A DNA stretch of 64,000 bases from Candidatus Atabeyarchaeum deiterrae (GCA_037310415.1 CP147780.1:544001-608000); one strand, 5' to 3'; shown: positions 42,621 through 50,317, numbered from the stretch's first letter. Numbers and translations are program-made. Notes: generated from the letters alone by a model not told the origin.

Positions 42621-42662
42621 TTCAACAGCCTTCTGGTCACACCTCTTCAATTCACTCTCAGG
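42621..42662 (-). repeat. atpB 3'-end relic, copy 1 (most eroded)
   Basis: Translates PESELKRCDQKAVE. Confidence 0.7.
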
Positions 42663-42828
42663 TGGCAATTAAAAATGCCGCAATGATCCATCGTCCGTGA
42701 ACTTGGTTTAGAACACTTCTTTCCGCAGCGTCAGCATAATAGAAGATTTAAGAGGCTTGCAGCGTTATTTCTATTGGAATGCGAAGGGGCGGAGTTCTTC
42801 CTTACCTTGAAAGAGTAGGTGGTGTGAA

Positions 42829-43218
42829 ATGTCAAAGCAGGGAAATAAGAATTGGGTATTTGAGGACAGCGAAGCCGTCATAGGCAATAACGTAGTAACC
42901 TTCAAGAGAAATGAAGATGCCATGTCGATGGTATCGTTGAGACATGTCGCAAGCGTTGATTTGAACTTCAATGTAGTCTACGTAAATATCGATCAAGGGG
43001 ACGCAAGTTCGCATGAGCCAGCTTTCTTCGAATGCAAAGCATCGACCAGAGAAGAAGCGAGATATTTCTTCGAAGCATTGAAGCAGAAAATGGATTTTGG
43101 CATACAAATGTCGAATCAGACAATGGGTTCAGGCACTCAGACAAGTTGCCCCTACTGTAAGAGCTTGATCGGTCCGAATGCCAAATTCTGTAGTTCTTGT
43201 GGTTCGAGCTTGAGTTAG
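42829..43218 (+). CDS. PH-like domain protein with C-terminal zinc ribbon
   Basis: CPYCKSLIGPNAKFCSSCG C-terminus. Confidence 0.7.
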   Translation: MSKQGNKNWVFEDSEAVIGNNVVTFKRNEDAMSMVSLRHVASVDLNFNVVYVNIDQGDASSHEPAFFECKASTREEARYFFEALKQKMDFGIQMSNQTMGSGTQTSCPYCKSLIGPNAKFCSSCGSSLS

Positions 43219-43399
43219 GCGAATGGGTCTAAGCTTGAGTATTAATTAGGCCGATATAGGTCCTCCCAATTTCATATTCAAAGTCAATCTCTTTTTGTTA
43301 ACTTTCCACTCAGCTCATTAAATAATGGCTTCATGCCCGCGCGCATGCCGCGAAAGTGATAGCCAATGGGATAGTTTGATTGTTTACTGATCTTAATTG

Positions 43400-43873
43400 T
43401 CATCGTATTGCTGACCTAAGGTGTTTTGGAAGGCGCAGTGATTGCCAATCTTGCCATCCTTGCCTTAGATTTTTTGGAAGGCGCCGTGTTTGCCAATTGA
43501 GTTCTTTGGCAATTATTGCCTCGGCATTAGCAGAATTGGTTGCTGCAACGACTTTAAGAGAATAGTAAGCAGCGCCGAAGGCGTGTTGGGGAACATGTGC
43601 AGTTGCCACCGCTTGGCCTGCTGCGTGCGCGGCAAAACAAGCCGCGTTATTTTCTTTCGCTTCGCGGGCGGCGGCGTGAGCTGCGAGCGCAGCCTTGCGT
43701 ATGTCGGCCATCTTAAACACGCCTGTGCGAACCCATGTTCGGCATGCTTCTATTGCTTTGCGGGGTCGGTCGTCCTTCGGGTATGTCTTCTCGAAAAATG
43801 GAAGTACTCGTTCGGCGCAGTCCGCGGCCCAGATTGCCAGCGATCTCTGATCTTGTTTGTTGAATTTCTTCAT
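43400..43873 (-). CDS. Imm5-like putative immunity protein
   Basis: LAIWAADCAERVLPFFE...DDRPRKAIEA...AAGQAVATAHV. Confidence 0.85.
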   Translation of the reverse strand: MKKFNKQDQRSLAIWAADCAERVLPFFEKTYPKDDRPRKAIEACRTWVRTGVFKMADIRKAALAAHAAAREAKENNAACFAAHAAGQAVATAHVPQHAFGAAYYSLKVVAATNSANAEAIIAKELNWQTRRLPKNLRQGWQDWQSLRLPKHLRSAIR

Positions 43874-44029
43874 TGCTTTTATTGTAATCGTCTGAATTTT
43901 ATAAGCGTATCTAGAATTTACCTGATGCTAAAAGTACTCTCAACAGATTCTAACCAGCGCACTAACTTTCAAATATGTGGGGTGATATACTCTAGGAAGA
44001 GTTGGGGATTATTAGGAGATGATTCTGTC

Positions 44030-45397
44030 TTGTCTGAGACCAAGAAGGTTCATGATCATATCGATGAACACTTCCAGGATCACTTGAAGGTTATGCAAGA
44101 GTATCTGAGGCAGCCAAGCGTCTCATCCACTGGAGAAGGTATGAAGGAAATCGTTGAGCTGACCCAGAAGTACATTGAGACAATGCTCGGGGGCTCGACG
44201 GAAGTCGTCAGCACTAAGGGATATCCTGTTGCGTATGGAGATGTCCAATCCAAGAAGAGCAAGAGAACCATGTTCATCTACGGAATGTATGACGTGCAAC
44301 CAGTCGAACCGCTTGATGAATGGGTCTCTCCCCCATTCGAAGCGAGGATAGTGGGTGAGAAGCTGATCGCAAGGGGCGCAATGAACTCGAAGGGGCCTCT
44401 TGTAGGCATGCTCTGCGCTTTGAAGTCGATCCTTGAAGTTACTGGAGACCTGCCGTTCAATCTCGTGTTCGGGGTGGAGGGTGAGGAGGAGCTGGGGAGT
44501 GTCCATTTGCCGGAGTTTGCGGAAAAGAAGTCAAGTGAACTCAAGCGTTGTGAGGCGCTACCTTGGTGGCTTCCCACTCAGGTCATGCCTGGAGCTCCCC
44601 CGGTCCTGAACCTTGGATTTAAGGGTATAGTCTACATGGAGCTTGAGTGTCAAACCAACCCATCGGACATTCACTCTGGTATGGCTAATATTATTCCTAA
44701 CCCTGTGTGGCGACTTGTTTGGGCGCTTAACTCTATGCGTGGACAGGACGAAGTACTCATCGATGGGTTCTATGATAATGTGCAGCCTCCGTCAACGGAA
44801 GACTTAGAATTGACTGATAAGAGCGCTCCGGTGGTTCTTGCAGCTACGCAAAGCATGTACAATGTCAAGAACTTCAGAAGTGATGTAAGAAACCCGAAAA
44901 CTGTGGCAAGGAACCTAATATACAAACCAAGCCCCATTAACATCGACGGCATCATAAGTGGATGGACTGGACCTGGAACAAAGACAATAACCCCGTCGAA
45001 AGTCATGGCTAAGATCGATGTTCGAATAGTGCCAAATATGACCACCCATGAGGTGGTTGATAAAATTAAATTGCATTTGAAGAAACACGGATTCGAGGAC
45101 ATTAAGGTGAATGTTCTTGGAGGCTATGAATGGGTCAAGACATCAATCAGGGATCCACTTGTTCAAGCCGCGATCAAGACGGTGGAGGAATTCGGCTACA
45201 AACCAGTGATAAACCCAATGATGCCCGCATCCGCACCATTCTACCTGTTCTGCAAGGAACCATTCAATATGAGAATGGTTAACGGAGGTCTAGGACATGG
45301 AGGACTTATACATGCACCTAATGAGTACTTGATGGTGAAGGACATTAGGAACTTTGAGAAGTCCTTCGCGTCACTTCTACTCAACTACGCCAAGTAG
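44030..45397 (+). CDS. M20 family metallopeptidase/deacylase
   Basis: YDVQP, ARGAMNSKG, EGEEELGS, HAPNEY; real start is the TTG at 44030 (the upstream ORF extension overlaps Imm5). Confidence 0.92.
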   Translation: MSETKKVHDHIDEHFQDHLKVMQEYLRQPSVSSTGEGMKEIVELTQKYIETMLGGSTEVVSTKGYPVAYGDVQSKKSKRTMFIYGMYDVQPVEPLDEWVSPPFEARIVGEKLIARGAMNSKGPLVGMLCALKSILEVTGDLPFNLVFGVEGEEELGSVHLPEFAEKKSSELKRCEALPWWLPTQVMPGAPPVLNLGFKGIVYMELECQTNPSDIHSGMANIIPNPVWRLVWALNSMRGQDEVLIDGFYDNVQPPSTEDLELTDKSAPVVLAATQSMYNVKNFRSDVRNPKTVARNLIYKPSPINIDGIISGWTGPGTKTITPSKVMAKIDVRIVPNMTTHEVVDKIKLHLKKHGFEDIKVNVLGGYEWVKTSIRDPLVQAAIKTVEEFGYKPVINPMMPASAPFYLFCKEPFNMRMVNGGLGHGGLIHAPNEYLMVKDIRNFEKSFASLLLNYAK

Positions 45398-49321: not shown

Positions 49322-49323
49322 GG

Positions 49324-49443
49324 TTACTTGTAGCAATTAGCCTTACGCGCATCACCAATAGTCTTAGGATCGCACCTCTTCATTTCACTCTCAGGAAACA
49401 CCGAAAGAAGCTCCCAAGCCAAATCAAGAGTCTGATCAATGCT
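49324..49443 (-). repeat. atpB 3'-end relic, copy 3 (longest)
   Basis: Translates SIDQTLDLAWELLSVFPESEMKRCDPKTIGDARKANCYK*, matching the C-terminus of A/V-ATPase subunit B. Confidence 0.85.
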
Positions 49444-49568
49444 TAGAGGAGTCCGCTTGCTATTTGCGTGAAGCGCGTATCTCAACAACTTCGCAGAGAT
49501 CCAATCGATGTCAACCTTTGAATTTCAACAATTCTGAAGATCTGAGCAACGCATGCCAAAAAAAGACA

Positions 49569-50135
49569 TTAGGGCTTCTTCACTTCACGGTGTATCCACC
49601 AGACGAGCCCAATAACGATAGGAATTCCGAAAACAATTGCCGTCCAGACCAGTATCGTGATAATTGAGTCTACAACATAGTTCAGAGTCCAAGTAGCAAT
49701 GGCAACGTTCCAGTTTCCATCGATAAAGACCTTGATGCAGAACGCAATGAAGAGCAACAGCGGTATTCCACTTCCACCCCTTCTTGCACGTGAGCGTTTA
49801 CCGGAGAGGTGATATTCTCTCTTCTCCTTACTAGGCAGCCTTCTCCACCATAGCCAACCCGCCACTCCACCTACGACCGCAGGGACCCCAATAAAAAGAA
49901 GCTCCCAGAAAACCAAATACAAAATGAAAGTCACTACGTTCCCCATTGTCCAAAGACCCAAAGCCACAGGTACCAGGCCTGTCGACAGAGCACTCCCAAC
50001 GAACCATAAGAAGACATAAACTGCACCCACAAATGCTAGAATACCTGCTATCACAAATACGACAACTATGCCCCAATGTTTTCCCAGGAATTTCCTCCGA
50101 GCATCTGAACCACTTTCAGACTCAGTTCCTGACAT
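49569..50135 (-). CDS. membrane protein, hypothetical (about 4 TM)
   Basis: Hydrophobic Trp-rich ORF with RBS. Confidence 0.7.
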   Translation of the reverse strand: MSGTESESGSDARRKFLGKHWGIVVVFVIAGILAFVGAVYVFLWFVGSALSTGLVPVALGLWTMGNVVTFILYLVFWELLFIGVPAVVGGVAGWLWWRRLPSKEKREYHLSGKRSRARRGGSGIPLLLFIAFCIKVFIDGNWNVAIATWTLNYVVDSIITILVWTAIVFGIPIVIGLVWWIHREVKKP

Positions 50136-50230
50136 CCTGAATCTCCTCTTCCTTCAAAACCAGAACAATTACAGTACTTGAATATGTGCCAAATATATAA
50201 GCATTGACATCGCGTGCGCCATTACGTACG

Positions 50231-50317
50231 AGCGATTAGCTTTCCGCGCAGCCTCAATAGTCTTCGGATCACACCGCTTCATCTCACCCCCAGGAAACAC
50301 AGATAACGACTCCCAAG
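50231..50317 (-). repeat. atpB 3'-end relic, copy 4
   Basis: Translates WESLSVFPGGEMKRCDPKTIEAARKANR. Confidence 0.83.

Follow-up and report, generated by a model that had tools for sequence, protein, structure and literature searches.

Relics of the atpB 3' end separate cargo modules downstream of the gene in the Asgard archaeon Candidatus Atabeyarchaeum deiterrae

Serial insertion at gene ends is already known, and several described systems come close to the locus presented here. In Streptococcus thermophilus, the 3' end of fda carries ICESt1/ICESt3 accretion arrays of ICEs and CIMEs, with a cognate integrase-bearing ICE at the same site and near-identical att cores. SSV-type elements have their attachment site inside the integrase gene, the halves of which flank the insert. 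The tycheposon islands of Prochlorococcus and tRNA-anchored cassette islands use tRNA or tmRNA anchors and include recombinase-bearing members, while integrons, IMEX and pdif modules consist of recombinase-less cassettes with one site each and an enzyme encoded elsewhere. She et al. reportedly described tandem integration and "gene capture" in the chromosomes of archaea in 2001. Also for archaea, integrases that target protein-coding genes have been reported, together with elements integrated in tandem at a single locus and elements whose integrase has been lost (PMC8371274).

The locus was studied in a window of 64,000 nucleotides (GCA_037310415.1, CP147780.1:544001-608000; genome G000 below) and compared with that of Atabeyarchaeia-1 (G001), a fragmented genome (G002) and two metagenome contigs (L095 and L108). 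The arrays at atpB, the gene for subunit B of the A-type ATP synthase, resemble those at fda in that a housekeeping gene is targeted at its 3' end, the end is resupplied and the old end displaced, and tandem modules, some of them without recombination genes, are bounded by att repeats; unlike those at fda, the five atpB arrays have no integrase-bearing partner, they belong to an Asgard archaeal host and their blocks reach only 65-88% identity. As in the tycheposon islands, small cargo modules, many without a recombinase, are arrayed between partial copies of the target gene, but the anchor is atpB instead of a tRNA or tmRNA gene and no recombinase-bearing members were found. With integrons, IMEX and pdif modules the atpB cassettes share the lack of a recombinase and the single bounding site, and they differ in having no adjoining IntI, no attC-like fold, no dif-like 11-6-11 structure and a mixed gene orientation. 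Archaeal tandem elements (PMC8371274) are similar in serial one-site integration, reported integrase loss and fixation of cargo in the chromosome, but mostly occupy tRNA genes and are plasmids or viruses that measure 5-40 kb and encode a whole or split integrase, whereas here the target is atpB, the units measure 0.7-13 kb and no integrase is present.

The whole 2.76-Mb genome was searched by nhmmer with a profile that covers the final 210 nt of atpB and was made from three family genomes. Besides the intact gene, it matched only six 5'-truncated relics; every relic lies on the minus strand no more than 26 kb downstream of atpB (Table 1), and the next-best matches had E > 4. The intact gene lies at genome 612273-613775 on the minus strand, 4.3 kb to the right of the window, as an open frame of 500 codons scoring 780 bits against TIGR01041, and had been anticipated beyond the 64 kb in a preliminary description made from the sequence. 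The observation at the core of that description, four minus-strand fragments resembling the AtpB C-terminus, is confirmed: their positions and translations hold, and the match is to the genome's own AtpB with strong nhmmer statistics. All four are real, but the total is six, with a tail-only relic and copy c5 added. That the left copies are the most eroded, and hence the oldest, does not strictly hold, as the bit scores run 27, 31, 86, 66, 26 and 49 from left to right, and c5, which lies nearest atpB, shows more wear than c3 or c4. The peptide PESELKRCDQKAVE can be read in c1; c3 translates as SIDQTLDLAWELLSVFPESEMKRCDPKTIGDARKANCYK followed by a stop, its tail being cut short at the end of AbiEii. 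The tail-only relic spans the last ~12 codons (RYEYMSQSATA, then stop) and a few bases further, and starts ~35 nt past the stop codon of the CDF gene. The idea that it and c4 are halves of a circularly permuted mini-element was rejected, since a decayed tail of its own belongs to c4, and the tail-only relic reads as a simple 5' truncation.

Table 1. Relics, arms and cargo genes of the atpB array, in window positions
Feature	Position	Strand	Evidence or remark
Arm 5' of c1	42696..42800	-	alignments
Relic c1	42562..42695	-	nhmmer E 1.8e-6 and tblastn; most worn copy
Module A, 129-aa zinc-ribbon protein	42829..43218	+	Pfam Zn_ribbon, weak
Module A, M20 peptidase	43944..45397	+	Pfam PF01546, E 1e-20
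Module A, 304-aa protein, N-terminal membrane/signal segment	45565..46479	+	no family match
Relic c2	46502..46563	-	nhmmer E 1.6e-7; internal stop codon
Module B, 4Fe-4S protein, Fer4_16 type (QueG-like)	46589..47560	-	Pfam PF13484, E 1e-10
Module B, AbiEi antitoxin	47682-48530	+	Pfam
Module B, AbiEii toxin	48527-49321	+	Pfam
Relic c3	49325..49447	-	nhmmer E 2.9e-24; best kept copy in G000
Module C, 188-aa multi-pass membrane protein	49569..50135	-	
Relic c4	50231..50317	-	nhmmer E 2e-18
Arm of c4	50318..50389	-	78% identical over 64 nt to L095 relic arm
Cargo, 284-aa membrane-anchored coiled-coil protein	50419..51273	+	no family match
Tail-only relic	51425..51476	-	nhmmer E 5e-6 and tblastn; absent from preliminary description
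Module D, cation-efflux (CDF) transporter	51510-52397	-	Pfam
Module D, DUF6448 protein	52428-53003	-	Pfam
Module D, 1064-aa HerA/DUF87-type ATPase	53169-56363	+	
Module D, 594-aa protein	56389-58173	+	
Module D, five-gene operon	58755..64000, running on to 64064	-	SNF2 helicase (Pfam) and ParB-like proteins
Relic c5	window-equivalent 64243-64355, just beyond window end	-	nhmmer E 4.3e-13

The repeated block, ~145 nt long, takes in roughly 45 codons at the end of atpB and runs through the stop codon into ~15 nt of T-rich terminator. Among 25 relics, the 5' edge falls at model positions 1359-1372 in 11 and at 1384-1393 in 6, and in none beyond 175 nt from the stop, while 15 of the 25 3' edges fall 9-23 nt past the stop, the zone in which real atpB genes of different genomes lose similarity; this clustering may be due in part to the information content of the profile. 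Third codon positions account for 351 of the 685 differences between relics and resident ends (0.51), as against 0.50 between one real gene and another, with binomial p of 4e-22 relative to 1/3 and of 6e-4 relative to 0.45, a rough expectation for a relic decaying freely while the resident gene is under selection. Synonymous and non-synonymous codon changes number 14 and 9 in c3, 9 and 5 in c4, and 17/0, 24/4 and 19/7 in relics of L108; one L095 relic is 81% identical to the real atpB end of another lineage and 71% to its own resident end. Because the relics differ mainly by synonymous changes, they are best read as former functional AtpB ends from diverged alleles and not as local duplicates, in keeping with the earlier proposal that an element regenerates its target through the 3' end it carries. 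Blocks within one array show mismatches at nearly every third base, and their longest exact runs with the resident end are 6-23 nt; as no pair exceeds 88% identity, no recent event is visible. An excess of non-synonymous changes 5' versus 3' of the FPEGE codons was not significant overall (odds ratio 0.71, p 0.15); the split is suggestive in L108 only.

These data leave next to no room for a local tandem duplication whose copies of the atpB end then decayed neutrally, for chance similarity or for misassembly. The copies do lie in one orientation and close to the gene, as duplication would have it, but the cargo between them is unique and unrelated and the differences are overwhelmingly synonymous rather than random; chance is at odds with E-values down to 1e-24. 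Nor is the relic structure an assembly artefact, since Logan contigs assembled independently from two samples span c3-c4 and c5-atpB and show no difference from the genome.

Arrays of relics follow atpB in every other family member obtained, with four in G001, at least nine in G002, two in L095 and five in L108; these relics, at least 20, are all oriented as atpB. No array was found in 38 other Asgard genomes, each of which gave one match or none to the atpB 3' end. G000 and G001 are colinear from atpB onward, and the DNA from the relics to atpB is unrelated except for one gene, the 594-aa protein, which is the only cargo common to the two islands (57% amino acid identity). Across the family, cargo between relics is unrelated except for this protein, M20 and AbiE. 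The M20 peptidase has 92% amino acid and 86.5% nucleotide identity to a relic-flanked M20 gene of G002 (the ORF listed at 43490-45397 is probably over-extended at its 5' end), and AbiEi is 85% identical to its G002 counterpart, which is oppositely oriented relative to the relics; the AbiE module is inverted in this sense between the two genomes. In shared cargo, two of four homology breakpoints lie 5-13 nt from a relic edge, and the relics do coincide with borders of variable content, as had been proposed. The main text of the one detailed study devoted to the mobile elements of these genomes says nothing about ATP synthase or atpB (PMC11529989).

The five arrays hold ~30 modules of 1-9 genes each, 0.7-13 kb in size; those between blocks of L108 measure only 0.7-3.3 kb, with 1-3 intact genes. 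Their cargo consists mainly of defence, toxin-antitoxin and membrane or transport genes, which lie on both strands and appear to have promoters of their own. The AbiE pair is convergent with c3, with 2 nt between the stop codons, and the five-gene operon of module D looks like a defence system, with weak PADLOC matches. The accessory region of G000 begins near 35-38 kb of the window. Taking the whole stretch without synteny to G001 as a "60-kb island" was rejected: window 8.6-35 kb contains RNA polymerase, ribosomal and tRNA-synthetase genes, which sit elsewhere in G001.

The tyrosine or serine recombinase that the preliminary description expected beyond the window did not appear: neither PF00589 nor any other recombinase family was detected beside atpB or in the ~30 modules of the five arrays. 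About one third of the module proteins have no family match, so that a recombinase of an unrecognised family may be among them. Next to atpB lie a C13-peptidase-like gene and a HerA/TraG-like ATPase gene, with no IntI adjoining. Genome-wide, the PF00589 tyrosine recombinases of G000 and G001 are hundreds of kb from the atpB array, and one XerA-sized protein of this family (295-304 aa) occurs in each of G000, G001 and G002; G000 also encodes a tyrosine recombinase of 434 aa. In G000, target-derived direct repeats flank the inserts and the target gene is kept intact, as in integrative elements; no module in any of the five arrays contains an integrase. Searches for a free element carrying the block, with a degenerate ELKRCDPKT pattern and an arm-plus-core pattern, gave 0 matches in IMG/VR, and a scan of JGI metagenomes returned two family contigs and nine matches on contigs nearly without ORFs, which were taken as chance; no cognate recombinase-bearing element at the same site was found in the five arrays, IMG/VR or the JGI metagenome contigs. 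Block-block joints of the kind that excision or a circular form would leave were absent from Logan contigs of four wetland/sediment runs over the 20 kb from c3 to atpB, in assemblies of a kind that drops rare variants. The same comparison showed loose contig ends from strain variants. In run X5, contig depth was uneven across the modules (144 to 1080) and cannot rank genes.

Classical accretion would make the modules remnants of self-sufficient plasmids or viruses with a tyrosine integrase of the pNOB8 type, which had the atpB 3' end as their target and were later stripped of the integrase and most other genes. Its precedents are protein-gene targets, tandem integration and integrase loss in archaea (PMC8371274), and most G000 blocks are worn enough to have left time for deletions. 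We nevertheless consider it quite improbable: an integrase or fragment of one occurs in 0 of ~30 modules, and the L108 blocks are nearly undecayed (17/0, 24/4) around small modules with intact genes, leaving little time for clean integrase loss. Moreover, G000 has no block match outside the atpB locus and hence no resident element with such an attP.

A dif site is a pair of 11-bp imperfect inverted repeats with a ~6 bp spacer (11-6-11) (PMC2958812); in the block consensus the arms pair at 7/11 positions at best, no better than in shuffled sequences, and an IMEX-like Xer/dif site was rejected. Single-strand DNA folds of seven blocks gave z-scores of -1.2 to +0.9, which speaks against attC-like hairpins and an integron-like folded site. 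An integron was rejected on the further grounds that no IntI or attI lies beside the array and that cargo genes do not share one orientation, and an SSV-type partitioned integrase on the grounds that no reading frame stays open from arm to block and the flanking ORFs have no integrase match. With neither an above-chance inverted repeat nor a hairpin, the block lacks the usual look of a tyrosine-recombinase core; it is conserved in sequence and reading frame.

Homologous recombination alone would dispense with a site-specific enzyme: circles formed between two blocks of a donor array would enter the atpB end of a recipient through host RadA. Such a process needs no missing gene, accounts for the inherited discrete block edges and for insertion at internal blocks, and agrees with the lack of a recombinase-type inverted repeat; RadA is nearby, as in any archaeon. 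It is still an unlikely explanation, as blocks of such low identity and with such short exact runs are poor substrates for homologous exchange, and one would predict arrays in further Asgard lineages and at conserved genes besides atpB, whereas they are seen only at atpB and in this family.

The account that we regard as probable, though well short of established, has the atpB 3' end as the anchor of a cassette array that grew by serial Campbell-type insertion of circular, recombinase-less cassettes. A circular DNA with one block and 1-9 cargo genes would recombine with the block at the chromosomal atpB end; the incoming block would become the new functional end and the previous one would be displaced downstream as a 5'-truncated relic. 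Repetition of this step, possibly also at internal blocks, would yield the array. Because the cassettes have no recombinase of their own, insertion would depend either on the host recombination machinery or on a site-specific recombinase that works in trans from another locus or a helper element. We infer the circular intermediate, the action in trans and a crossover region near the FPEGE codons. Relics further from atpB are not consistently more worn, and their order therefore requires more than strict insertion at the gene end; the inversion of AbiE between G000 and G002 is not explained by a single directional site-specific reaction. The preliminary interpretation of repeated integration at atpB is supported overall, and its option of an atpB-derived cassette boundary accounts for the evidence no less well than classical integrase-bearing elements do.

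It is tempting to go further, if only tentatively, and to regard the locus as an integron-like gene-capture platform, with the coding end and terminator of atpB as its site and with cassettes that consist only of the ~145-nt block and cargo and cross genus-level lineages. A recombinase encoded elsewhere, perhaps of a new family or XerA, would both insert and excise them. Excision would re-fuse a downstream block to atpB, so every block would have to stay coding-competent, which would explain relics with many synonymous and zero non-synonymous changes.

To our knowledge, little is understood of how foreign genes enter Asgard archaea, the nearest known relatives of eukaryotes. The atpB locus offers a family-wide, datable, one-site record of gene acquisition in a wetland Asgard archaeon, in which the ~45 terminal codons for an essential enzyme subunit were repeatedly exchanged for foreign alleles, and points to an insertion route for recombinase-less cassettes. 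If the enzyme is site-specific, the block and its partner would make a natural targeted-insertion tool for organisms without a genetic system.

The non-coding arms add a further layer. Those of c1, c4 and one L095 relic align as a common sequence, including identical indels, which points to related incoming DNAs. For the c1 and c4 arms, spacing and an LK dipeptide are compatible with decayed atpB sequence, and nhmmer gives no alignment of them to atpB. Promoter-like motifs lie in the c1 arm at 42739-42754, facing the plus-strand gene, and in the c4 arm at 50374-50389, with a TTTAAG box ~35 nt before the start codon at 50419. The 16-nt arm motif has 10 copies in the genome, compared with 2-5 in shuffles, and was rejected as an att arm site on account of the eight copies elsewhere; it is therefore probably a common promoter.

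The four minus-strand fragments of the preliminary description are present, and a profile search traces them to the 3' end of the genome's own atpB, encoding A/V-type ATP synthase subunit B, which indeed lies beyond the window on the minus strand (genome 612273-613775, 4.3 kb to the right); its product scores 780 bits against TIGR01041 and carries the Pfam domains ATP-synt_ab and ATP-synt_VA_C. The nucleotide profile, built from the last 210 nt of atpB in three family genomes, was run over the whole 2.76-Mb genome of Ca. A. deiterrae (G000), a single contig of which the window is bases 544001-608000. 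Matches with E < 4 comprised only the intact gene and six 5'-truncated copies, here called relics, one of them a tail-only copy absent from the preliminary description. All six lie on the atpB strand, at most 26 kb downstream of the gene. No tRNA gene was found in the window.

Relics, modules between them and a neighbouring ATPase gene in G000 (window coordinates unless stated)
Feature	Position or size	Strand	Basis or content
Relic c1	42562-42695	minus	atpB 3'-end nucleotide profile
Relic c2	46502-46563	minus	atpB 3'-end nucleotide profile
Relic c3	49325-49447	minus	atpB 3'-end nucleotide profile
Relic c4	50231-50317	minus	atpB 3'-end nucleotide profile
Tail-only relic	51425-51476	minus	atpB 3'-end nucleotide profile
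Relic c5	64243-64355 (window-equivalent, past window end)	minus	atpB 3'-end nucleotide profile
Module 1 (nearest atpB)	3.9 kb		Panacea-like antitoxin, HD/dGTPase-like protein, HExxH protein
Module 2	12.8 kb		SNF2/ParB-like operon, HerA-type ATPase, 594-aa protein, DUF6448 protein, CDF transporter
Module 3	1.1 kb		284-aa membrane protein
Module 4	0.8 kb		188-aa membrane protein
Module 5	2.8 kb		AbiEii-AbiEi, 4Fe-4S protein
Module 6 (farthest from atpB)	3.8 kb		304-aa protein, M20 peptidase, zinc-ribbon protein
1265-aa DUF87/HerA ATPase	L005:9693-13490; genome 615693-619490	minus	paralogue at window 53169-56363

Relic arrays behind atpB are a property of the family. When the last 76 residues of AtpB were searched against 41 Asgard genomes, more than one match occurred only in three family genomes, namely G000 (five at that sensitivity), the complete Atabeyarchaeia-1 (G001; four) and a fragmented genome (G002; eleven), and the other 38 gave one match or none. 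In G001 the relics are found no farther than 11 kb downstream of atpB, and those of G002 are spread over four short contigs. Among metagenome contigs of relatives, L095 (JGI) carries atpB with two relics 4.3 kb downstream, L108 (ENA; AtpB about 90% identical) holds atpB and five well-kept relics in 9 kb, and two further short contigs contain a single relic each between unrelated genes. The closest AtpB proteins outside the family belong to Odin-, Jord- and Thorarchaeota (71-75% identity), and the runs holding the window's DNA are wetland and sediment metagenomes. The main text of PMC11529989 describes 18 integrated elements in two Atabeyarchaeia genomes and, as far as that main text goes, does not mention ATP synthase or atpB.

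The divergence of the relics is of a coding type. Of 685 differences from the resident end, that of the intact gene itself, 351 (0.51) fall at third codon positions, the corresponding share between intact atpB ends of different genomes over the same codons being 0.50; the binomial p is 4e-22 against one third and 6e-4 against 0.45, a rough expectation for a relic decaying freely while the resident gene stays under selection. One L108 relic shows 17 synonymous and no non-synonymous codon changes over 40 codons with its stop codon kept, an outcome whose chance is near 6e-11 when roughly one random change in four is taken to be synonymous. Other L108 relics give synonymous/non-synonymous counts of 24/4 and 19/7, c3 and c4 give 14/9 and 9/5, and c1, c2 and c5 appear neutrally worn. 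Furthermore, one L095 relic is 81% identical to another lineage's intact atpB end versus 71% to its own resident end. An origin of the relics as local duplicates is rejected on both grounds, which together indicate that each block, i.e. the repeat unit of the last ~45 atpB codons, stop and T-rich tract, was for most of its divergence a functional AtpB C-terminus, of this or another lineage. Such divergence is what one expects if incoming DNA has replaced the gene end serially. No pair of blocks exceeds 88% identity, so no fresh event is visible.

As proposed, the relics bound variable gene content. G000 and G001 are colinear from atpB rightwards, and the cargo between their relics is unrelated apart from one gene, for a 594/513-aa protein (57% identity). 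Modules of relatives encode a DpnII-type restriction-modification pair, a SocA/Panacea protein, PKD-domain proteins, an amino-acid permease, a Schlafen/AlbA_2 protein and a ParB-ASCH protein. G000 and G002 have two cargo genes in common. One, for the M20 peptidase, adjoins a relic in both and is more similar (86.5% nucleotide identity) than atpB itself (82%). The other is AbiE (~85% identical); its homology at the AbiEii end breaks off within 5 nt of a relic edge in both genomes, but the orientation of the module with respect to the relics in one genome is the reverse of that in the other. L087:1382-1945, L088:1522-2127 and L089:3355-4080 encode three paralogues of 190-240 aa (43-61% identical) with weak PKD-like and tissue-factor-like matches; in L088 and L089 the gene immediately precedes a relic and has its orientation, as though gene and block had multiplied as a unit, and behind the L087 copy no relic was found. 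Contigs of three runs diverge from the reference at both 49575-49753 and 52768-52814 (inside the DUF6448 gene), which suggests that strain variants differing in their neighbours co-exist. In metagenome run X5, word depths over L106:2141-19564 (genome 595.1-612.6 kb) vary widely, from 144 at CDF/DUF6448 to 1080 around the 594-aa gene, with 371 at atpB; the modules may be unequal in frequency or copy number there.

Edges of 25 relics were mapped on a full-gene atpB profile (1591 positions, stop codon ending near 1491). The 5' edges fall at 1359-1372 (11 of 25), 1384-1393 (six) and 1317-1318 (three), never farther than 175 nt upstream of the stop, and 15 of 25 3' edges lie 9-23 nt past it, within the T-rich tract, where intact atpB genes of different genomes also lose similarity. 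This clustering is suggestive of a discrete block, local-alignment edges being fuzzy and tracking the profile's information content. On the 5' side of the block, relics c1, c4 and that of L095 have in common an arm of ~65-110 nt of non-coding DNA in which the indels coincide (c4 versus L095, 78% over 64 nt, E 2e-8), and the incoming DNAs behind them would thus be related. The arm holds a TTTAAG-type motif facing a divergent cargo gene; occurring at ten places genome-wide versus 2-5 in shuffles, it is probably a common promoter.

The recombinase expected near atpB did not materialize. Pfam scans covering all ORFs of at least 120 aa in G000's array and the larger ones in those of G001, G002, L095, L108 and L110 detected no integrase, resolvase or transposase. 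PF00589 matches lie far from the arrays, at 497, 1009 and 2039 kb in G000 (the last XerA-sized) and at 0.17, 1.55, 1.66, 2.02 and 2.59 Mb in G001. A whole-genome profile found no other block-like sequence in G000, hence no resident element with a matching attachment site. The absence of any recombinase from ~30 modules speaks for cassettes that were always devoid of the enzyme, most strongly in L108, where nearly undecayed blocks flank modules of only 0.7-3.3 kb.

The best reading is that circular, recombinase-less cassettes, each with one block plus cargo, would insert in Campbell fashion into the block at the atpB end, perhaps also into internal blocks, with recombination supplied in trans. 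The recombination may be site-specific or homologous; two points speak for a site-specific enzyme, namely the low identity of the blocks, which mismatch at almost every third base, and confinement of the arrays to one gene in one family. The block contains no hairpin (fold z from -1.2 to +0.9), and its best dif-like inverted repeat (7/11) is no better than chance, equalling shuffles; the absence of a recombinase-type inverted repeat carries no weight either way. Non-monotonic wear, which is at odds with a strict age order with the left relics oldest, and the inverted AbiE module imply that other rearrangements also occur. With these two amendments, to the neighbouring recombinase and the age order, the earlier interpretation is supported. 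In sampled Asgard relatives, unlike Bathyarchaeia, Methanobacteria and Thermococci, atpD does not lie within 10 kb downstream of atpB, so insertion there would cut no operon.

Tycheposon islands and the accretion of ICEs and integrase-less CIMEs at the fda 3' end in Streptococcus thermophilus are the nearest bacterial parallels. By their defining tests, the atpB arrays are neither integrons, SSV-type elements nor Xer/dif elements. Archaeal integrases with protein-coding targets, tandem integration and integrase-less integrated elements are on record (PMC8371274). New here are the target, atpB, the lineage, Atabeyarchaeia within Asgard archaea, the consistent lack of recombinases, and evidence that foreign alleles have repeatedly taken the place of the end of an essential gene.

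The 1265-aa ATPase gene separates atpA from atpB in G000, G001, G002 and L109, these genes being adjacent in Thorarchaeota; in Atlas, the clusters closest to its product bear TrwB/TraG coupling-protein domains (score 0.91), and it may be a DNA-transfer ATPase beside an insertion hotspot. In G001, ~1.5 kb absent from G000 (L094, G001:C1:611694-613213) interrupts similarity to atpA and may be an intein, and a 2497-nt ENA contig (P0002) encodes a 704-aa AtpB-like protein, matching the query at 65% identity across 76% of its length, that may be a read-through, fusion or intein-bearing form of the family AtpB. The gene atpD lies at window 1173-1862 on the plus strand, 67 kb from atpB and opposite to it in strand; the family thus has a dispersed A-type ATPase operon.

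The whole 60 kb without G000-G001 synteny was considered as an island and rejected, since 8.6-35 kb carries core genes (S7, RNA polymerase A''/A'/B, HisRS, eIF2-alpha, L10e); the accessory region begins near 35-38 kb. This block (8610-35139), running from S7 to L10e, follows EF-1alpha in G000, and in G001 these genes lie elsewhere (L10e is found on the opposite strand at 498 kb), which indicates a large rearrangement, one of whose breakpoints falls between EF-1alpha and S7. Left of c1, the accessory region is free of relics and contains a 178-nt direct repeat (38671-38848 and 40026-40203, 80% identity), the second copy forming the start of an LMW phosphatase gene, and two adjacent paralogous genes (36436-37125 and 37251-37964, 41% amino-acid identity). 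A free-standing LAGLIDADG-type protein is encoded amid the core genes (23881-24849, minus strand).
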